64,000 bases of DNA from Bacillota bacterium (GTDB taxonomy: Bacteria; Bacillota; Desulfotomaculia; Desulfotomaculales; Nap2-2B): assembly GCA_040755975.1 (NCBI GenBank), contig JBFLZY010000006.1, forward strand, positions 10,078-74,077. The letters run 5' to 3'. The position numbers and the translations under genes are program-made. The notes below the pieces were generated by a model, which made no database searches, was not told the origin of the DNA, and worked only from the letters and a program-made list of their open reading frames with translations. Shown here one piece after another: positions 18,453 through 31,238 of the stretch. Position 1 is the stretch's first letter, and each line of letters begins with the position of its first letter.

Positions 18453-19157
18453 TTACATTGCTTCGGCCAGCTGTTCTCCCTGCCTGCCTTCCAAAACGGC
18501 ATCGGCCATTTTGCTGGTCAGCAATCTTACGGCCCGGATGGCGTCGTCATTGCCCGGGATGACGTAGTCTATCTCTTCCGGATCGCAATTTGTATCCACA
18601 ATGGCAACGATCGGGATGCCCAATTTTCTCGCCTCGGCAACGGCAATCCGCTCTTTGCGCGGGTCAATTACAAAAAGAGCGTCCGGCAGCTTTTTCATCC
18701 CTTTAATTCCGCCGACGGACTTTTCCAGTTTCTCTTTTTCCCGCGTAAGTCCGGCTATTTCTTTTTTCGGCAAAACCGCGAGCGTGCCCTCGGCCGCCAT
18801 TTTTTCCAGCTCGAGAAGGCGCTCAATCCGGTGGCGGATGGTCTGAAAGTTGGTGAGCATGCCGCCCAGCCAGCGCTGGTTGACGTAAAACATGCCGCAC
18901 CTTTCGGCCTCTTCCCTAACCGCCTCTTGGGCCTGCTTTTTGGTCCCCACAAAAAGAACGGTCCCGCCAGCGGCGCTCAACTCCTTGACGAAATTATATG
19001 CTTCTTCGATTTTCCTGACCGTTTTCTGGAGGTCGATGATATAAATTCCGTTGCGGTCGGTAAAAATATAAGGAGCCATTTTCGGGTTCCACCGCCTGGT
19101 CTGGTGCCCGAAATGAACCCCCGCCTCCAAAAGCTGCTTCATTGAGATAATCGCCAC
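18453..19157 (-). CDS. rpsB: 30S ribosomal protein S2
   Basis: [24 protein letters not shown]...; GTG start 19157 after GGAAGGAGGTG. Confidence 0.95.
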
Positions 19158-19432
19158 TTTTACACCTCCTTCCGCCCTGGTTTTTCCCTCCGCCGCCTTC
19201 ATCCTTTTGCGCAAACCCGCCTGGGCAACCGGCAAAAATCAGGCCGGCGTGCGTATTTTTTACCGGATGTATTCTAACACAAACTTGCCGGGCGCGCAAG
19301 GGAGGATCGCAAAAGAGCCGTCCTTTACCGCCGGTTGATTTCATGTTAAAACGAGGGGGAAGAAGTGAAGAGGTGGTGGCAGGGATGCCGCCGGGATTTT
19401 CCCTGGATTTATAACGATATTTTCTAACCCTT

Positions 19433-19567
19433 TCAACTAAAACACCTGATTACCAGAACCCCCGTTAAGAACAGGATGGTGCTCAAGCCCAGGGTATCGA
19501 CCACCAGGGAAACAGTCTCTACCCACTCAGGGGTTTTCTCCTCGGGATAATAACGTTTGTTCGCCAT
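19433..19567 (-). CDS. Small (44-aa) single-TM membrane peptide, last gene of the first TauE module
   Basis: ATG 19567 preceded by GAGGTG; MANKRYYPEEKTPEWVETVSLVVDTLGLSTILFLTGVLVIRCFS; below the ORF-track size cutoff. Confidence 0.35.
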   Translation of the reverse strand: MANKRYYPEEKTPEWVETVSLVVDTLGLSTILFLTGVLVIRCFS

Positions 19568-19732: not shown

Positions 19733-19811
19733 CAAAACAAAAGGCCGGTTGCCTTGAACCAAGGCTAACCGGCCTATCGTTGTTCGATTTGGCCTAAACT
19801 CTTTTTACTTT
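19733..19811 (-). ncRNA. Candidate short transcript / attenuator (copy 1): conserved hairpin overlapping an intrinsic terminator
   Basis: Minus-strand RNA reads GGCCAAAUCGAACAACGAUAGGCC followed by AGGCCGGUU..AACCGGCCU UUUGUUUU; 25 of 26 nt of the core are identical to the copy at 28816-28841. Confidence 0.5.
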
Positions 19812-19817
19812 GTTAAA

Positions 19818-19846
19818 ATTATAACAAAGCAATCGGGTGCTGTCAA
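19818..19846 (-). promoter_or_regulatory. Consensus sigma-70-type promoter (TTGACA-17-TATAAT) driving the short transcript
   Basis: Minus strand has TTGACA (19846-19841), a 17-nt spacer and TATAAT (19823-19818). Confidence 0.7.
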
Positions 19847-19903: not shown

Positions 19904-20617
19904 TCAGGCTTCTGCTTTTTCCGCGGGCTTGCTGGCCGTGATCCCCAGCCCCTCAAAGATCAACATGATGGCAAAGCCGTACCAGATGGTGTAAACAACG
20001 TAAAAAACGAGGGAACCAACCGAAATTCCCGCCACTTCCCGGAACCGGGCCGGCGGAATGCCGTCATAATTGTACGCCGGCTCCAAAGCCTTCTTGCTTA
20101 CGTTTTCAACAAACACCGCCTCCGCCGGTTTGTTTTCCTGCAGGTAGTGACCTTTTAACTGCTTGAAGGCCGCCCACCAGTAATAAACGGCTTCCTTGCC
20201 GGAAAAACCGTATTGATTTGGGGCGGGCGTTTCCCCGCTCTGAAACAAGGCATCGGCGTCAGCCAGCGCGCGCCGGGCCACCAGGCCCAGGTCGCCCGTG
20301 ACCCGCAGGCTTTCTCCGCTGACCGCCGCTCCCGCGCCCGCGGCAAGGAAGAGAGTTTTCATTTTTTCCAGCTCTTCGGCACTTTTCACCTGGAAAGTAA
20401 CTTCCATTTTAGTTCCGGTAAATCGATCTGCTTTCCCGGCCAGGTCCGGAATAAAGTAGGACGATCCCTTAGCCAAAGAGTTAAAGATGCCGTCGACCAG
20501 ATGCAACCCGGTCGCACCTTGAAAAACCGGGCTGAGGATTACGGCCAGGGTCGCTCCGAAGCAAATCAGCAGCACCAGGCCGGCGATAAATGCCCTCCGG
20601 TTAATGATTACAGGCAT
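19904..20617 (-). CDS. Membrane-anchored hypothetical protein (N- and C-terminal TM segments), partner of the TauE-like permease
   Basis: 237-aa ORF 20 nt downstream of the 441-aa permease gene; no family recognised. Confidence 0.55.
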   Translation of the reverse strand: MPVIINRRAFIAGLVLLICFGATLAVILSPVFQGATGLHLVDGIFNSLAKGSSYFIPDLAGKADRFTGTKMEVTFQVKSAEELEKMKTLFLAAGAGAAVSGESLRVTGDLGLVARRALADADALFQSGETPAPNQYGFSGKEAVYYWWAAFKQLKGHYLQENKPAEAVFVENVSKKALEPAYNYDGIPPARFREVAGISVGSLVFYVVYTIWYGFAIMLIFEGLGITASKPAEKAEA

Positions 20618-20637: not shown

Positions 20638-21963
20638 CTAACGAGAAGACTCCAAGGCCTGTTCCGTCCGCCCGGACGTTGCCGGCACACCGGCCAGAGC
20701 AGCGTGTTCCGCCCTGATTTTTCCCACGCTGCGCAGGAAAGAGGCCAGGACCCAGAAAGCAAACCCGCTGACCAAAGCAAAAAAGATGACCGTTCCGATG
20801 GTGCTCAGCAGTTTTCCGGCGGCCGGGGCCAGGCTAAGGTAACCGGCGCTGGAAAGCTTTTCCGGCAGAGCACAGGCCCGGTTGACAAAGCCGGCAAAAA
20901 TGGCCAGAGCGTAAAAACCGCGGATGACCGCCCCCTTGACCACCTTCGTCACCATGGCGCCGATTTGCACGCCGACCAGGGAGCCCAGCAAGAGGCCCAT
21001 GGTCAGGGAGTAAAAGACGAACCCGCTGATGGCGTATTGAATGGACGCATACCCGGCCGTAAAGATGATCTGCAAAATATCGGTGCCGACGGTCGTAAAC
21101 GTGGATACGCCAAGGCCGTAGACAAACATCGGGAAGGTCAGAAAACCTCCGCCGACACCCATAATGGCGGCGATAAAACCGACTATGAATCCGCACCCGA
21201 TAACCGGATAAACCGGCAACTGCCGGCCGCCCGGGACAATGTCCTGGTCGAATTTAACGTAGGGGGGAATCTTCAAGGACTGTAACGTCCGGGCAATCCT
21301 GGTCGTGGTTTGCACCTGCGCTTTTTGGGAAGCCTCGGCCCGGCGCAGGCTAAGATAATCGTAAAGGGCATAAGCCCCCAGAATGCCGAGCATGAAAACA
21401 TAGACTCCACTGATAAAGGCGTCGCTGAGCGCGGGGCTCTTTTCGTAAATGGACTTGTTCAAGCCCGTTCCCAACGTCACCCCAAGGGTTGAACCAACGA
21501 CAAACCAGACCGCCAGCCAGACGTTCACGTTGCCCAGCTTCCGGTGCAGGGCGGTGCCCATGATCGCTTTGGCAAAAATATGAAACTGGTCGGTCCCCAC
21601 CGTCATAATTCCCCTTACCCCGATACTCATCAACGCCGGGGTAATCACGAAACCCCCGCCGGCGCCGATACACCCGGTAATTAAACCCGCAACCAACCCC
21701 ACAAAAAGCGAACCCAAAAACATTTCCGTGGTAATAAAGGACGGCGCGTAAGCTTTGCCGCCGCCAATCAATTCGGTCGCCAAAGCTATTTCTACGCCCA
21801 TAAAAATGATTACCGGCAAAAGGGCGGCCAGCAATATTTTCCAGCGCCTGGCGAGGATAAACCTGCTGTTTTCAATTTCCCAGCGGGCGTAGGCGCTTTG
21901 CAGGTTCAGCAGCGTATTGTTGAACTGCCTTCCTTTGTGGCAAAGTTTAGACCACAAATGCAT
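20638..21963 (-). CDS. TauE/SafE (DUF81) family anion permease, long form
   Basis: 441 aa; duplicated GxGGG-type motifs (CIGAGGGFVITPAL and IMGVGGGFLTFPMF) with TVGTD motifs typical of TauE/SafE; ATG 21963 after GGGGGAG. Confidence 0.8.
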   Translation of the reverse strand: MHLWSKLCHKGRQFNNTLLNLQSAYARWEIENSRFILARRWKILLAALLPVIIFMGVEIALATELIGGGKAYAPSFITTEMFLGSLFVGLVAGLITGCIGAGGGFVITPALMSIGVRGIMTVGTDQFHIFAKAIMGTALHRKLGNVNVWLAVWFVVGSTLGVTLGTGLNKSIYEKSPALSDAFISGVYVFMLGILGAYALYDYLSLRRAEASQKAQVQTTTRIARTLQSLKIPPYVKFDQDIVPGGRQLPVYPVIGCGFIVGFIAAIMGVGGGFLTFPMFVYGLGVSTFTTVGTDILQIIFTAGYASIQYAISGFVFYSLTMGLLLGSLVGVQIGAMVTKVVKGAVIRGFYALAIFAGFVNRACALPEKLSSAGYLSLAPAAGKLLSTIGTVIFFALVSGFAFWVLASFLRSVGKIRAEHAALAGVPATSGRTEQALESSR

Positions 21964-22880: not shown

Positions 22881-23201
22881 ATGAAAACGGTAAGAGAATT
22901 CGTGGTGCCGGTAAACGATTACGACCCCAACCTTGAAAAAGAAAAGCGTTACGTTCCGGGCAGGGAGCGCGTTTTTCGCCCCGGGTTCTATCCTTACGTT
23001 CAGGAAGTCGTCCGTTTCAACCTGCTTTCCGTAAATGCCGGCGATCCCGTGGAGAAAGCCCTGCAGATCATGTTCCGGGAAAAGGTAAAGACTTTACCGG
23101 TGCTGGAAAAGGGCAAAATCGTCGGCGTGGTCAGGTCCCGTGATTTAATTGCCCTGTACGGGGAACTGTTCGAAGATAAGCGGATGAGCTTTTCGTCTTG
23201 A
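22881..23201 (+). CDS. Small CBS-domain protein
   Basis: 106 aa; KVKTLPVLEKGKIVGVVRSRDLI is a CBS-type beta-alpha-beta segment; RBS GGAGGAAA. Confidence 0.55.
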   Translation: MKTVREFVVPVNDYDPNLEKEKRYVPGRERVFRPGFYPYVQEVVRFNLLSVNAGDPVEKALQIMFREKVKTLPVLEKGKIVGVVRSRDLIALYGELFEDKRMSFSS

Positions 23202-23352: not shown

Positions 23353-24885
23353 ATGCCTCCTTTTACCCAAATGCCGGGTTTTAAACGCCAATTTTTACTA
23401 ATTGTGTTTATCCTTTTAATCGTCCCGGTGCTGGTGATGCTTTACGACGTCTATTTCGCCTCCAAAACCGACGACATTCTGGTCGTCAACCTCGAAAAAA
23501 AGCTTACCGGCATTGTCAATCAGACGGGCGAAAAAATCACCGCCCGGCTCGCACTGGAACCGGCCGGAAAACAGGCCGCTTCCCTGGAAGAGGCATTCAA
23601 TCAGGCGGCCGCTCCCCTGGCGGAAGCCAACCCGGGCGTCCGGCTGTGTATCTACCTGATCGAAAAAGACAAGATCGTCATCCACGGCTATCTTCACGAA
23701 TTCGGCAAGCGCCTGCCGGAAGAAAAATACGAACGGGAACGGCGCATTTACAACGAAGCGTTAAAAGGAATTTCCGCCGTGATGAAAAGCGGGGAACATA
23801 TCACCAGACTGGGCCGGACATGGGATGACCAGTTCTTGGAATACCTGGTCCCGGTGCGCGTTAACGGCCAGATCACCGCGGTGCTGTGGGCGGAGGAAAT
23901 GATGCACCCGCTTTTTGCCCGCAGCACGAAGCTGCGCCTGGTAATCCGCTACGTCACCCTCGTGGTCTTCAGCTTTGGCGTCATTGCTTCCCTGGTCGCC
24001 ATTGCCTCTTTGGTCCGGCAGGTAAGGGTAATCAAAAACGGCCTCTTGCAACTGGAGAACAATTTTTACTACCGGCTCCCGGCGCTGCCGGGCGAGATGG
24101 GCCAGATTACCGGGGCGATCAACACCTTGGCCGCCGGTCTTGCCGAAAGAGAACAAATGATTGAACAATTGCGGCGTTCGGAAAACCTGATCGCCCTCGG
24201 CAAACTGGTCACCAACATCGCCCACGAGCTACGCAACCCGGTTAGTATTATCCAGGCCGTCAGCGAAGTGCTGGCGTCCCGGTTGAAGAGTTCTCCGGAA
24301 TTAAAAGGGTATGCGGAATACGTAACAAAAATTCAGGAGCAAATCGAAAGACACAACCGGCTGGTGGGAGAACTGCTGGACTTTGGGCGACCAGACCCCG
24401 GCCTCATCGCGCCCCTGAGCTTAAATGAACTGATTTCCGTAATTCTAGGGGACTGCGCTTTGTTGCTCCAGCAAAAAAAGATCGCCCTCGAATTCGCTCC
24501 CAGCGCGGAACCGCTGCTCATAAAGGGCAACCAGGAAAAACTCAAGCAGGTACTGATCAACCTCCTGCTTAACGCCGTCCAGGCCATGCCCAGGGGGGGA
24601 AACCTGATCGTCCGGACGGAAGCAGTCAACCACACGGCCCGGGTGATGATCCGCGACACCGGGGTAGGCATCTCCAAAGAAGACCTGCCGCAAATTTTCA
24701 CCCCTTTCTATACCAAAAAAGCCGGCGGGGGCGGTCTGGGCCTGGCGATCAGCCGGCGCATCGTCCAGATTCACGGGGGGTCGATCAGCGCGGAAAGCGA
24801 ACCCGGGGCGGGTACCACTTTCATCCTCAGCTTTCCGCGTCTTCAAACGGACGAAGAAAACATAGCGTTATCCCCAGATACTTAG
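23353..24885 (+). CDS. Sensor histidine kinase (2 TM, extracytoplasmic sensor domain, HAMP, HisKA, HATPase_c), paralog 1
   Basis: H-box NIAHELRNPVS, N-box LLLNAVQAMP, G-boxes RDTGVGI and GGGGLGLAISRRIV; same architecture as the ORF at 35104-36669. Confidence 0.9.
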   Translation: MPPFTQMPGFKRQFLLIVFILLIVPVLVMLYDVYFASKTDDILVVNLEKKLTGIVNQTGEKITARLALEPAGKQAASLEEAFNQAAAPLAEANPGVRLCIYLIEKDKIVIHGYLHEFGKRLPEEKYERERRIYNEALKGISAVMKSGEHITRLGRTWDDQFLEYLVPVRVNGQITAVLWAEEMMHPLFARSTKLRLVIRYVTLVVFSFGVIASLVAIASLVRQVRVIKNGLLQLENNFYYRLPALPGEMGQITGAINTLAAGLAEREQMIEQLRRSENLIALGKLVTNIAHELRNPVSIIQAVSEVLASRLKSSPELKGYAEYVTKIQEQIERHNRLVGELLDFGRPDPGLIAPLSLNELISVILGDCALLLQQKKIALEFAPSAEPLLIKGNQEKLKQVLINLLLNAVQAMPRGGNLIVRTEAVNHTARVMIRDTGVGISKEDLPQIFTPFYTKKAGGGGLGLAISRRIVQIHGGSISAESEPGAGTTFILSFPRLQTDEENIALSPDT

Positions 24886-24990: not shown

Positions 24991-25371
24991 GTGGCCAGGG
25001 TACTTGTTATTGACGATGAAGAGGGGATGTGCTGGGCGCTGGAAAAAGCCCTGGAGGAAGAAGGCCACCGGGTTTTTACCGCCACCTGCGGGCTGGCCGG
25101 TCTGGCTGTTTTCAAGGCGCAAGAAATCGACCTGGTCCTTTGCGACATCAAGATGCCCGACATCAGCGGGCTGGAAGTTTTGGAGCAAATCCGCAAGAAA
25201 AAACCGGACGTTCCGGTGGTGATCATGACCGGGTACAGCACTTTGTCCGTTGCTCTGGAAGCAATTAAAAAAGGGGCCGTCAGCTACCTCACCAAACCTT
25301 TTCACATCGGTCAGCTAAAGGAATTGATGCAGAAAATGATTAATCAGCAGCCTTGCCGATCAGTCCATTAA
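24991..25371 (+). CDS. Stand-alone response-regulator receiver domain (NtrC-type receiver without AAA+ or HTH domains)
   Basis: VLVIDDE...DLVLCDIKMPDISGLEVL...YLTKPF; aligns with residues 1-120 of the NtrC-type protein at 36644 but stops after 126 aa. Confidence 0.9.
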   Translation: MARVLVIDDEEGMCWALEKALEEEGHRVFTATCGLAGLAVFKAQEIDLVLCDIKMPDISGLEVLEQIRKKKPDVPVVIMTGYSTLSVALEAIKKGAVSYLTKPFHIGQLKELMQKMINQQPCRSVH

Positions 25372-26695: not shown

Positions 26696-27886
26696 TTAAG
26701 CTTTGGCCCTGGCCGCCAGCTCTTTTTCCCGCTTTTCCCGGGCAATCCCTGCGAAAAGCTGGACGACAATGTAGATACATATTCCGGAAGCAGCGGCCAG
26801 CATCAGGTAACCGCCAACCATCGTCCAGAGATAATTTTTCATAAAGGCAACGTACCACTCCGGCCGGTTGGCCACTTCCACCATGTAGTGGTACATGGCA
26901 TCCTTCTTGTAGATCAGCGCGGAAATTTCCCCGGCGGAAAATCCTTCTTGTTTCAGCAGCGCTTCGATTCCTTTCTTGTAAACAGGTTCGTACTGGGAAG
27001 CAATCTGTTTTAAAATTACGGACGCACAGCACAGGAAGGTCGCCACGGCAAAAACCAGCCGGATCGTGATTCCGTAAACGTACTTGGTACAAATAGTGCC
27101 GAATTGGGCACCTACCGCTGCACCAAGGAGCATGATCGCCGCGCCAAGCACTTCCACGCCGCCTTTCAAACTATAGGTGAAGCACCCGTAAGCACCCGAG
27201 AACATCACCTCGAACAGGTCGGTGCCGACGGCTATTTTGGTGGGTACACCCATTAAGTAAATCAGGGCAGGCACCCGGATGATGCCGCCGCCGACCCCCA
27301 GAATGCCGGCGCAAAAACCGGTCACCACGCCCACGAAGAGGATGGCCCAGAGGGAAACTTTCATCCTGGCTACCGGACAGTAAAACGTGGGCCAGATGTT
27401 GAGCGTGTCCTGGATCCAGCGGGACCAGGCGGTGCCGACCACGTCCGCCACTTCTTTGCCGGTTTTCTTCTCCTGCCTTCTTACGCGCAGATATTCCGAT
27501 AACATAAACGTGCCGATAGTCAGGAGCAGGATCATGTACAGGTAGCGCACCACTGTCCCGGCCTGGCCGATTTTGGTCAGATACCGCAGGATTTGGGCGC
27601 CGGCCTCAATTCCCGAAAAGGTTCCGATCAACATGACCAAAGCAATGATGACGCTGACGTGACCAAATTTCCAGTGCCTGAAGGTGGCGATGATGGATTT
27701 GCCAACCAGGTGGGTCATGTCGGTACCTACGGCGTAAATCATCGGAAACCCGAAGATATTCAGCGTGGGGGTAACCAGCCACGCCCCGCCGATGCCGAAA
27801 AAGCCGCCCACCACCCCGACGGTGAAGCCGATTAGCAAAAGGGGCCACCAGGCCATTTCAACTCCACTTACCGGCATGTGGATCAT
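26696..27886 (-). CDS. TauE/SafE (DUF81) family anion permease with C-terminal extension
   Basis: 396 aa; FFGIGGAWLVTPTL and ILGVGGGIIRVPAL repeats, AVGTD motifs; same central insertion as the 441-aa paralog. Confidence 0.8.
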   Translation of the reverse strand: MIHMPVSGVEMAWWPLLLIGFTVGVVGGFFGIGGAWLVTPTLNIFGFPMIYAVGTDMTHLVGKSIIATFRHWKFGHVSVIIALVMLIGTFSGIEAGAQILRYLTKIGQAGTVVRYLYMILLLTIGTFMLSEYLRVRRQEKKTGKEVADVVGTAWSRWIQDTLNIWPTFYCPVARMKVSLWAILFVGVVTGFCAGILGVGGGIIRVPALIYLMGVPTKIAVGTDLFEVMFSGAYGCFTYSLKGGVEVLGAAIMLLGAAVGAQFGTICTKYVYGITIRLVFAVATFLCCASVILKQIASQYEPVYKKGIEALLKQEGFSAGEISALIYKKDAMYHYMVEVANRPEWYVAFMKNYLWTMVGGYLMLAAASGICIYIVVQLFAGIAREKREKELAARAKA

Positions 27887-27918: not shown

Positions 27919-28122
27919 TTATTGCACTTTAATCACTTTATCTTCTTCTTCGTACTCTTTCTTGTACTTGCCCAGGTCAATCCGGAGGGCTTTAAAGATC
28001 AGATCAGCCAAAATGCCCAGGGCGCCCCCCAGGCAAACCATGGTCAGCACAGTCATCCCCGCGTAGGACAACGGGGAGGCCTTTTCTAAAGCGGCAAGCC
28101 ATTCAAAGTAACCCATGGTCAT
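27919..28122 (-). CDS. Small membrane protein (67 aa), upstream partner of the permease
   Basis: One TM segment (MTVLTMVCLGGALGILADLIF) and an acidic/basic tail; RBS GAGGAGGA. Confidence 0.5.
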   Translation of the reverse strand: MTMGYFEWLAALEKASPLSYAGMTVLTMVCLGGALGILADLIFKALRIDLGKYKKEYEEEDKVIKVQ

Positions 28123-28407: not shown

Positions 28408-28620
28408 CTAACGAATAACTTGCTTTGGTTTGTTTTTTCCAGGATAAAGGGTAACCGGCTGTTCTTCCAGCTTCACCGTCTTGATGGCTTCGTAAATCAA
28501 CACCGGCTGTCCGTTTTCCACGCGCACTCTGACTTCACCCCAACCTAATTCCCGCATGAAAAGAATGAGCTGTTTTTCCCTGTTCGTAAGGTTCTGGACG
28601 GCTCCTTTTTCATCGGCCAT
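28408..28620 (-). CDS. YezD-family (DUF2292) small protein
   Basis: 70 aa; LTNREKQLILFMRELGWGEVRVRVENGQPVLIYEAIKTVKL matches the YezD family pattern (my recollection). Confidence 0.65.
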   Translation of the reverse strand: MADEKGAVQNLTNREKQLILFMRELGWGEVRVRVENGQPVLIYEAIKTVKLEEQPVTLYPGKNKPKQVIR

Positions 28621-28775: not shown

Positions 28776-28889
28776 AAAAAAGGCCGGAAGGCTCTAACCG
28801 GGGCTAGAGACTGCCGGCCTATCGTTGTTCGATTCGGCCCTGCCTGTGAAGTTTGATCTAAAAATAACAAATTCCTGCTGCGCTGTCAA
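28776..28889 (-). ncRNA. Copy 2 of the promoter + conserved hairpin + terminator unit
   Basis: TTGACA at 28889-28884 with a weak -10 (TATTTT), GGCCGAAUCGAACAACGAUAGGCC, then the terminator AGGCCGG...CCGGCCU UUUUU. Confidence 0.45.
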
Positions 28890-29666: not shown

Positions 29667-31238
29667 GTGGAAAAGAACAAAAAACTGCGAAAATGTAATG
29701 ACAAGGAGGGGGGTTGGCCGGTGTTTTTCCGAAAAATCACCACCCGCAGCAACGACAAGGAATACACGTACGTCAAGCTCATTGAAAACTACCGAAAGGG
29801 AAATAAGATCAAGCAAAGGGTCATCGCCAACCTGGGAAACATCGAAGAACTGGACCCGGACCGGGTGCGCAACCTGATCGCCAGCCTGGCGAAAGTTTGC
29901 GGCGTGGAACCTCCCGGCAAACCAAAATTGAAAATAAAAAGAGTCTTGCGTTACGGCGACGCCCTGCTGATCCATAAAATCTGGGAACGGCTGGGCCTCA
30001 CCGGCGCGGCGGGCGCCTTCCCCGGCGCGACGCCGGACCTGGCCCTGGCGATAGAACTGCTGGTCATTGCCGAACTCCTCCCCCTCCCCGCGGGAGCGTT
30101 TCAGGAATGGCGCCGCCACCTCTATTTGCCCGCTCCGGAACAGGCGAATCCCCCGCCCCGGGAAGAAGTCCTGAACTATCTGGCCGAAAACGGGCGGCGC
30201 CTCCAGGAACGCATCTTTCACCGGTTGCAGGAATGGGGAAAAGTAACCTCGCCCATCTACCTTTTCGCCGTGAAGAGCCTGGTGGAAAACATCCCCCCGC
30301 AGCCGGCCCACTTTCTCAACCGGCGCGGCGAACGCCGTTTCTTCGACCTGGATTTATTTACGACGCCCGCGGGAATCCCGGCCGGGTACGCCGCAACGGC
30401 TCGAAACACTGCAGACGGGCAAAACCTGACCAAAAGGATGGCCCAGGCCGGCGAACGGTTTAAAAATTACCGGGTTATCCTGGTCGGCAATTTTCCCGCC
30501 CTTCCCGAAGAAAATCCGCCTGGTCTTGCCAGGTACGCCCGGGAATACATCACCGGTCTTTCCCTTTCCTCCCCCAAAGCCGGGGAGACCAGCCGGAAAG
30601 TCTTGCCGGCAGACCTTTTCCCCGCAGATCTCATCCCGGCAGCTCTTTTGGAGAACTTCCACCGGCTTGCCGACGACCTCTGGTACCGGGAAATCAAATC
30701 GGAACAAACGCGCTACCTGTTATGTTCGAATCCTTTTCAAAATCGCAATTTCATTATTCAAACAAATACCGAAGATCTCCCCGCCTCCGAAATTATCCGG
30801 ATCTATAACGATTTCGCCGCTGTTCAAGCCCGCTACCGGGTCATCGGATGCCCCGCCCGGCCGGATTGCACCGCCATGAGCCTGCCGGGGCGGATCTTTA
30901 TTTCCTGGCTGGCCCACCTGGTCGAGAGGCTCCTCGACTATATTTTCCAGGAACAGGGAATTAATATAAATGCGCTTGCCGCCCTGCAAACTTTGGAGCC
31001 GGTTAAGATAGTCATCAACGAAATGGGGGGTGAGATCGGCAGTTCGGTAATGGCGATGGATAAGGCGCAGAAAAAAATTCTATCCGCCCTGGAAGCGGGA
31101 GTGGCGCCTTCAGAAGCACCTGACGGGTTTCGTCCGACTTCCTGTCCCGCCGGGCAACACCGGCGACACCTTAGAAAACAGAGGTTGGGGATTAGACTCC
31201 CAGGCCATTTTCGCAGCACAAACAGAAAACGAAAATGA
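29667..31238 (+). CDS. IS1634/IS4-family transposase-like protein, probably degenerate
   Basis: N-terminus FFRKITTRSNDKEYTYVKLIENYRKGNKIKQRVIANLG is typical of IS1634 transposases. The expected second catalytic Asp region reads ILVGNFPALPEEN. The last ~15 codons run into the hairpin repeat. Confidence 0.55.
   Translation: MEKNKKLRKCNDKEGGWPVFFRKITTRSNDKEYTYVKLIENYRKGNKIKQRVIANLGNIEELDPDRVRNLIASLAKVCGVEPPGKPKLKIKRVLRYGDALLIHKIWERLGLTGAAGAFPGATPDLALAIELLVIAELLPLPAGAFQEWRRHLYLPAPEQANPPPREEVLNYLAENGRRLQERIFHRLQEWGKVTSPIYLFAVKSLVENIPPQPAHFLNRRGERRFFDLDLFTTPAGIPAGYAATARNTADGQNLTKRMAQAGERFKNYRVILVGNFPALPEENPPGLARYAREYITGLSLSSPKAGETSRKVLPADLFPADLIPAALLENFHRLADDLWYREIKSEQTRYLLCSNPFQNRNFIIQTNTEDLPASEIIRIYNDFAAVQARYRVIGCPARPDCTAMSLPGRIFISWLAHLVERLLDYIFQEQGININALAALQTLEPVKIVINEMGGEIGSSVMAMDKAQKKILSALEAGVAPSEAPDGFRPTSCPAGQHRRHLRKQRLGIRLPGHFRSTNRKRK

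Follow-up and report, generated by a model that had tools for sequence, protein, structure and literature searches.

We identified a large, previously undescribed family of predicted cis-regulatory RNAs that is associated with genes for TauE/TSUP, DASS and FNT transporters, for sulfur assimilation, for a kinase-receiver pair and for DUF2292/YezD-like proteins. Two copies of this RNA occur on the minus strand of the window, the 64,000-nt stretch of Bacillota DNA that was analyzed. Judging from sequence comparisons, we consider it likely that the unit is a cis-acting transcription attenuator, in which a factor would gate the choice between a small hairpin and an intrinsic terminator.

Copy 1 is preceded by a promoter (19846-19818, minus strand) with a TTGACA box at 19846-19841, a 17-nt spacer and a TATAAT box at 19823-19818 that has a TG extension. 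It scored 12/12, in agreement with the TTGACA-17-TATAAT promoter of the original prediction. The same layout is kept in other genomes of the genus, and we infer a start site near 19811. A 23-nt A-rich stretch separates the TATAAT box from the antiterminator hairpin (19794-19771, minus strand), a 24-nt element that reads GGCC-AA-AUCG-AACAA-CGAU-A-GGCC and is composed of an outer stem (P1, GGCC/GGCC), an internal loop (AA/A), an inner stem (P2, AUCG/CGAU) and an AACAA loop; folded alone, it gave -8.3 kcal/mol. As had also been predicted, an intrinsic terminator follows directly (19774-19734, minus strand), with a G+C-rich stem at 19774-19743 and a U-tract at 19742-19734, and UUUUGUUUU lies directly 3' of this stem. 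Bases 19774-19771 (GGCC) are common to both structures, forming the 3' arm of P1 in the hairpin and the base of the terminator. Folded alone, the full terminator gave -23.5 kcal/mol, and -11.1 kcal/mol once the four shared bases were removed.

Copy 2 has an equivalent organization. Its promoter (28889-28861, minus strand; TTGACA, 17 nt, TATTTT, TG extension) scored 10/12 and is weaker than that of copy 1. The antiterminator hairpin (28839-28816, minus strand) gave -9.4 kcal/mol, and the intrinsic terminator (28819-28776, minus strand) is formed by a stem at 28819-28782 (-22.5 kcal/mol) and a U-tract; this terminator is unlike that of copy 1 in sequence and equivalent in structure. The whole unit (about 28839-28777) scored 67.7 bits with a covariance model. 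A 26-nt core is thus found twice in the window, at 19794-19769 and 28839-28814, with one substitution between the copies, and no second match arose in 100 shuffles. The recurrence had been noted in the original prediction, which placed the second core at 28816-28841, two bases off. Pattern and covariance-model searches of the 3.24-Mb assembly detected no copies beyond these two.

The original prediction had also placed both copies in the same position relative to a TauE module, which proved incorrect: copy 1 lies downstream of its TauE gene and copy 2 upstream. Upstream of copy 1 are the genes for a 441-aa TauE/TSUP permease (20638-21963, minus strand) and a 237-aa bitopic protein (19904-20617, minus strand). 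Downstream, the first gene is a 44-aa membrane-peptide ORF (19433-19567, minus strand), followed by rpsB (18453-19235, minus strand), and an ORF of 44-49 aa is present at equal distance in loci of the same genus. The segment 19600-19720 (minus strand), 3' of the copy 1 terminator and ahead of the 44-aa ORF, contains AACCTGCTCCCTTTTCATG...GGAGAGG, a sequence that other genomes of the genus have kept and that can fold into an additional hairpin. Copy 2 precedes the gene for a 70-aa YezD-like protein, a diverged member of DUF2292 (28408-28620, minus strand), and the distal genes of this operon encode a 67-aa membrane protein (27919-28122, minus strand) and a 396-aa TauE/TSUP permease with a Pfam match (26696-27886, minus strand). 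A second promoter-like site (28699-28670, minus strand; TTGACA, 18 nt, TAGAAT; 11/12) lies 3' of the copy 2 terminator and ahead of the YezD-like gene. Read-through may therefore contribute little to the expression of this operon in the window. The plus strand carries a histidine kinase gene (23353-24885) paired with a gene for a receiver-only response regulator (24991-25371), which consists of a bare receiver domain; in other genera this kinase-receiver pair is itself preceded by the RNA.

An operator-like palindrome (19810-19827, minus strand), an imperfect TTGTTA-N6-TAACAA, covers the -10 box of copy 1. Sites of the form TTGTTA-N6-(TAACAA/GATCAA/TCTCAA) were also observed at promoters driving RNA copies in several genera (loci L005, L019, L030, L032, L040 and L042). 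The spacing resembles that of CRP/FNR-type sites, and the palindrome may go with the TGTGA..TCACA operators that the original prediction had listed. If it is an operator, the regulon would be controlled at the DNA level as well as at the RNA level. We considered a Rex operator and dropped it, because the palindrome is partly just the extended -10 box (TRTGnTATAAT) and its spacing fits CRP/FNR-type sites better.

The strongest evidence for two competing structures came from covariation in an alignment of 105 distinct copies (A4). The hairpin was 97.4% paired, and five of its eight pairs had changed on both sides (26 cells). These values were not reached in any of 500 column shuffles, and pairing collapsed when the partner strand was slid. 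In P2, C9-G17 was replaced by G-C in 8 copies and by U-A in 2. In P1, G1-C24 was replaced by A-U in 12 copies, C4-G21 by U-A in 2 and C3-G22 by U-A in one. The alignment was built with a model that lacked P1, and its core contains no gaps, so these P1 counts do not stem from the fitting of the model. For the terminator, counted together with P2, pairing was 97.1%, and two-sided changes were seen in 141 cells. Positions 21-24 belong to both hairpin and terminator, and position 24 covaries with both of its partners: it formed GC in 72 copies, AU in 12 and GU in 4 with position 1 of the hairpin, and CG in 88, UA in 11 and UG in 6 with the 3' arm of the terminator. Compensatory changes in both structures, together with the double covariation of position 24, indicate that the two are mutually exclusive, as the shared GGCC arm had led the original prediction to propose, and that both are under selection. 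Selection for an intrinsic terminator together with a second structure that excludes it is what characterizes an attenuator.

We examined the distribution of the RNA at several levels. Each of the five other genomes of the same genus contained 1-3 copies (5/5). A scan with an exact 21-nt core pattern over 185,579 species, each represented by one genome, detected 42 stretches in Pelotomaculum, Desulfofundulus, Desulfoscipio, Desulfotruncus, Desulforudis, Ammonifex, Desulfovirgula and related uncultured Bacillota. Three further matches occurred in unrelated phyla, all without a terminator; about two were expected by chance, so these matches serve as an internal negative control. A covariance-model search of the genome and its relatives had been suggested with the original prediction, and such a model (R1, built from 38 copies) indeed found further homologues, matching 59 of the 151 genomes sampled from the class (Desulfotomaculia-type Bacillota), with carriers in 36 of 64 genera; these counts overstate independence because the genomes are related. 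Positive genomes had 1-8 copies, mostly clustered within ~10 kb, and a single weak match was obtained in the ~146 genomes of the phylum sample outside the class. A third paralog type was observed in two same-genus loci (L012 1476-1524 and L010 1476-1524); it has an AAAAA loop, a short terminator, a convergent trpS gene (tryptophanyl-tRNA synthetase) and no co-oriented downstream gene, and was not present in the window's own genome.

The genes behind the RNA were mapped in 15 loci of 14 genomes against reference proteins. A recognizable conserved gene followed 53 of the 61 copies within 1.2 kb; the median gap was 145 nt, and RNA and gene were co-oriented in all 53 cases. Thus, the copies occupy leader or intergenic positions on the strand of the downstream gene, which is the location expected of an attenuator. 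The downstream gene coded for a YezD-like small protein (17 copies), the 441-aa TauE accompanied by the 237-aa protein (10 copies, all in other genomes and with the pair directly behind the RNA), a 150-aa protein to which no function was assigned (7 copies), the 67-aa membrane protein together with the 396-aa TauE (6 copies, in 6 mapped loci), a member of the DASS/Na-sulfate symporter family (4 copies), a histidine kinase (3 copies), an HTH protein (3 copies), a receiver-only response regulator (2 copies) or a protein similar to the 523-aa ORF of the window (29667-31238; 1 copy). FNT channel genes were found downstream of the Pelotomaculum copies. CBS-domain proteins recur beside DASS genes in other loci, and one is also present in the window at 22881-23201. 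One genome contained four copies within 630 nt, two of which are 9 nt apart and followed directly by a ribosome-binding site and a YezD-like gene, and a third of which lies between the YezD-like gene and a TauE gene. Such tandem copies leave no room for promoters and can therefore work only as conditional terminators within a transcript.

The original prediction had matched the element to no riboswitch or leader family, and this held in database searches. Rfam 15 detected only two tRNAs in the window and, around the element, nothing better than E 1.6 at a permissive threshold. In 12 related loci, the gathering and permissive Rfam 15 scans returned only tRNAs and one S-box, and the canonical variants described below were not covered. 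No description of the RNA was found in the literature on TauE riboswitches, on DUF2292/YezD or on antitermination and sRNAs of Desulfotomaculum.

Several known antitermination systems share parts of the proposed logic. In the hut operon of Bacillus subtilis, controlled by HutP (PMC12591593), a small regulator gene comes first and a terminator precedes the distal genes, an arrangement comparable to DUF2292, hairpin-terminator and sat/cysH/cysK in the loci discussed below. However, HutP binds spaced UAG/NAG triplet repeats, which are lacking in the leader here, and the candidate protein in our case has ~55-75 residues and an unrelated sequence, with RNA binding only proposed. The RAT hairpins recognized by the CAT domain of BglG, SacY and LicT (PMC12591593) are similar: they are conserved, imperfect, 24-29 nt long and interrupted by an internal loop, they share bases with the 5' arm of a terminator, and their stabilization permits read-through. 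These hairpins differ in sequence and are associated with sugar PTS genes, unlike the sulfur-anion transporters here, and CAT_RBD (PF03123) had no match in the window's genome (92% complete), whereas control genomes did match. ANTAR regulators (AmiR, NasR and EutV; PMC12591593) offer a two-component system beside terminator-overlapping hairpins that precede several operons of a locus, including the regulator's own. However, their targets are two tandem hexaloop hairpins rather than one hairpin with a 4-5 nt A-rich loop, the local response regulator here is a bare receiver domain, and the single ANTAR gene in the window's genome is located on an unlinked contig.

We then considered the small protein as a partner of the RNA. 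The 70-aa protein of the window had no PF10055 (DUF2292) match at the Pfam gathering score, and its relatives gave E values of 0.027-0.1, short of the cut-off. A profile-profile comparison of the YezD-like family with canonical DUF2292 returned a probability of 84.6% (E 6.9e-6, 27 columns), which supports remote homology between the 70-aa protein and DUF2292. The RNA was present in all 43 class genomes that carry a YezD-like protein (43/43), a co-occurrence in which the relatedness of the genomes overstates independence and which is also expected of a gene that is simply regulated or co-transcribed, and which by itself does not separate a regulator from a co-regulated gene.

Two weak R1 matches outside the core group had the same architecture with a different P2 and loop, and were located directly 3' of a small DUF2292-type ORF. 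We considered a false positive for the weak match in genome G024 and dropped this explanation, since the match shows the shared architecture and lies behind a DUF2292 ORF of a prophage. In this prophage (contig 9, L106 3901-4140), a gene for a 57-aa DUF2292-type protein is followed immediately by the diverged hairpin-terminator and then by a sigma-70-region-4-like gene, genes for terminase subunits and a portal gene. The module seems to gate phage late genes; a tblastn search of phage records with the prophage DUF2292 protein gave no match.

Canonical DUF2292 genes had a related RNA. Among 30 canonical (PF10055) loci that represent other classes of the phylum, we found at least 16 distinct sites with the arrangement GGYU, GA, 4 bp, 4-5 nt A-rich loop, 4 bp, A and GGCY fused to a terminator, and in several of them the terminator overlaps the 3' strand of P2 as well. 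These sites are usually 0-130 nt 3' of the DUF2292 stop codon. The genes after them have N-termini that, assigned by eye, we take to be typical of ATP sulfurylase (sat), APS/PAPS reductase (cysH), CysD, cysteine synthase (cysK) and sulfonate-binding proteins. A strict pattern for the canonical hairpin was found in 26 of 301 phylum genomes, compared to 2 matches for a reversed-pattern control, and PF10055 was present in 24 of these 26 genomes versus 45 of 301 overall. Bacillus subtilis 168, from the control set, also had a PF10055 match. In both subfamilies, A6 and A20 are invariant and G2, G5, G10, A11, A15, C16 and G21-C23 nearly so, loop length varies, and P2 varies freely between the subfamilies with full compensation, in an alignment whose canonical rows were chosen with a pairing filter. 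One canonical locus (L115 1290-1700) contains an S-box (SAM) riboswitch (RF00162), a canonical DUF2292 gene, the hairpin-terminator and a CysH-like gene, that is, two RNA checkpoints in series.

The DUF2292/YezD-like proteins have variable basic C-terminal tails. In two canonical loci (L143 1384-1638 and L144 1468-1635), the C-termini read ...GLYGDGI and ...GLDGEGI, and these ends resemble the C-terminal tail of serine acetyltransferase that docks into cysteine synthase. An AlphaFold model of the YezD-like protein was poor (pLDDT 60) and had no recognizable RNA-binding fold, and a PDB sequence search with the YezD-like profile returned nothing meaningful. The receiver-only gene abuts or overlaps YezD-like genes in three loci (L100 5470-6141, L101 4367-5082 and L103 10669-11521), an arrangement which hints that the receiver and the small protein work together, perhaps as a split response regulator. 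A similar position is known for OscA of Pseudomonas corrugata, a small protein with no assigned function: oscA is the first gene of the sulfate-uptake transcription unit oscA-sbp, and OscA is induced by, and needed under, sulfur starvation or chromate stress (Viti et al. 2009, via PMC2996968 and PMC3596284). OscA is comparable in being a small protein that is first in a sulfur-uptake unit, but unlike the system described here, no RNA element is reported for it in the available parts of PMC2996968 and PMC3596284.

We propose the following mechanism. Polymerase would start ~17 nt upstream of the 24-nt hairpin with its P1, purine-A/A internal loop, P2 and A-rich pentaloop. The hairpin would form first during transcription and would be displaced once the 3' arm of the terminator emerges, the terminator state being favored by an estimated ~5 kcal/mol. 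With no factor bound, the terminator would win on energy, so that an RNA of ~75 nt is released and the downstream genes stay off. A trans factor could lock the hairpin, which would leave a truncated terminator stem four bases from the U-tract and allow polymerase to read through; we thus assume that binding turns the genes on, not off. The signal probably concerns sulfur-anion supply. Three other mechanisms were rejected. Pairing of the loop with the U-tract (AACAA with UUGUU) fails because the G is missing from many copies and variation in the loop does not follow it. An upstream DUF2292 ORF could in principle cause ribosome-mediated attenuation, and its stop codon is often immediately next to P1; however, no ORF precedes many of the copies, among them the two in the window. 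A K-turn in the internal loop is incompatible with a 3' strand that consists of a single A and so provides no tandem G-A pairs.

The DUF2292/YezD-like protein (28408-28620 in the window) could quite possibly be the direct binder of the hairpin; it is favored as the factor because its gene comes first in canonical operons, before the terminator, and because of its basic tails and the contact with the receiver gene. Somewhat more tentatively, DUF2292/YezD, possibly including OscA, might represent a new family of RNA-binding antitermination proteins of ~55-75 residues, whose hairpin (GGYY-RA-[4 bp]-A-rich loop-[4 bp]-A-GGYY) would gate sulfur uptake and assimilation. In Desulfotomaculia, this would amount to a regulon with up to 8 leaders per locus that includes TSUP/TauE, DASS and FNT transporters and is wired to the kinase and bare receiver, maybe as a split response regulator. 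Good copies of the RNA also occur in G032 (100% complete) and G101 (90%), two genomes in which no DUF2292/YezD-like gene was detected even at E <= 1, so this protein is not an obligatory partner everywhere. The RNA copies of G032 (L109 4087-4386 and L107 3341-3403) and G101 (L108 3030-3094) were observed ahead of DASS and CBS-domain genes.

These two genomes fit the main rival explanation, in which the hairpin is a very small riboswitch aptamer whose internal loop or pentaloop binds a sulfur-status ligand, a metabolite or an ion such as O-acetylserine, APS, sulfite or thiosulfate, that stabilizes P1 without any protein. The architecture also matches that of small riboswitches embedded in terminators, such as the HMP-PP class (thiS motif), in which, as described in the available part of PMC6478431, a conserved element of very small size is joined to an intrinsic terminator; the element here is still smaller and simpler, and is absent from Rfam 15. 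The invariance of the unpaired A6 and A20 and near-invariance of G5, A11 and A15 would suit a ligand-binding site, tandem copies occur, and the regulon is metabolically coherent. However, a selective pocket, especially one for an anion, would be hard to build from a 24-nt hairpin with a 2x1 internal loop. A freely varying P2 and a variable loop length suit the footprint of a protein better than the core of an aptamer, and the tight, position-specific linkage to DUF2292 genes just upstream would be left unexplained. Thus, we regard a riboswitch as unlikely.

The original prediction had offered a candidate sRNA and an attenuator as alternatives, and the comparative evidence supports the latter. 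If the window copies were independent sibling sRNA genes of ~75-85 nt, acting in trans by base pairing or by titration of an RNA-binding protein, their own sigma-70-type promoters and strong terminators, the further promoter between copy 2 and the next gene, and the third paralog type that faces trpS with no co-oriented gene behind it would all be accounted for. This explanation is nevertheless very doubtful, since every one of the 53 mapped copies with a downstream gene is co-oriented with it, some copies have no room for a promoter, no conserved single-stranded seed was present outside the hairpin, and covariation conserves a P1 pairing that competes with the terminator and that a plain sRNA does not need. 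In the window, the copies' own promoters imply that abundant terminated leaders would be made, and these may have a secondary role in trans, for example by titrating the factor. It is extremely improbable that no RNA switch exists and that the unit is an ordinary terminator beside a chance repeat or a conserved DNA site: the terminator alone would be unremarkable and supplies much of the covariance-model score, but conservation of the core is confined to one strand, the core is always 5' of the terminator, the three chance core matches have no terminator, and this explanation is contradicted by the co-orientation and by covariation in both hairpin and terminator, in which compensatory changes keep the RNA pairing and not the DNA sequence.

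If the attenuator model is true, a phylogenetically broad and previously undescribed cis-regulatory RNA joins the known bacterial attenuators, and DUF2292/YezD proteins, which are widespread, tiny and without a known role, acquire a concrete and testable function. With a hairpin of only 24 nt and a candidate protein of ~70 aa, the system would be easy to test in vitro, and it could possibly be used as a compact part for gene regulation. According to Marietou et al. (PMC5840216), sulfate reducers have abundant TSUP-family proteins, and these are the only candidate sulfate carriers in Ammonifex; this genus was among those in which the exact-core scan detected the RNA. For Gram-positive sulfate reducers and their syntrophic relatives, the same comparative study (PMC5840216) did not settle which proteins carry sulfate and sulfite. 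In these organisms, the RNA marks a set of transporters, TSUP/TauE, DASS and FNT, that would be co-regulated.
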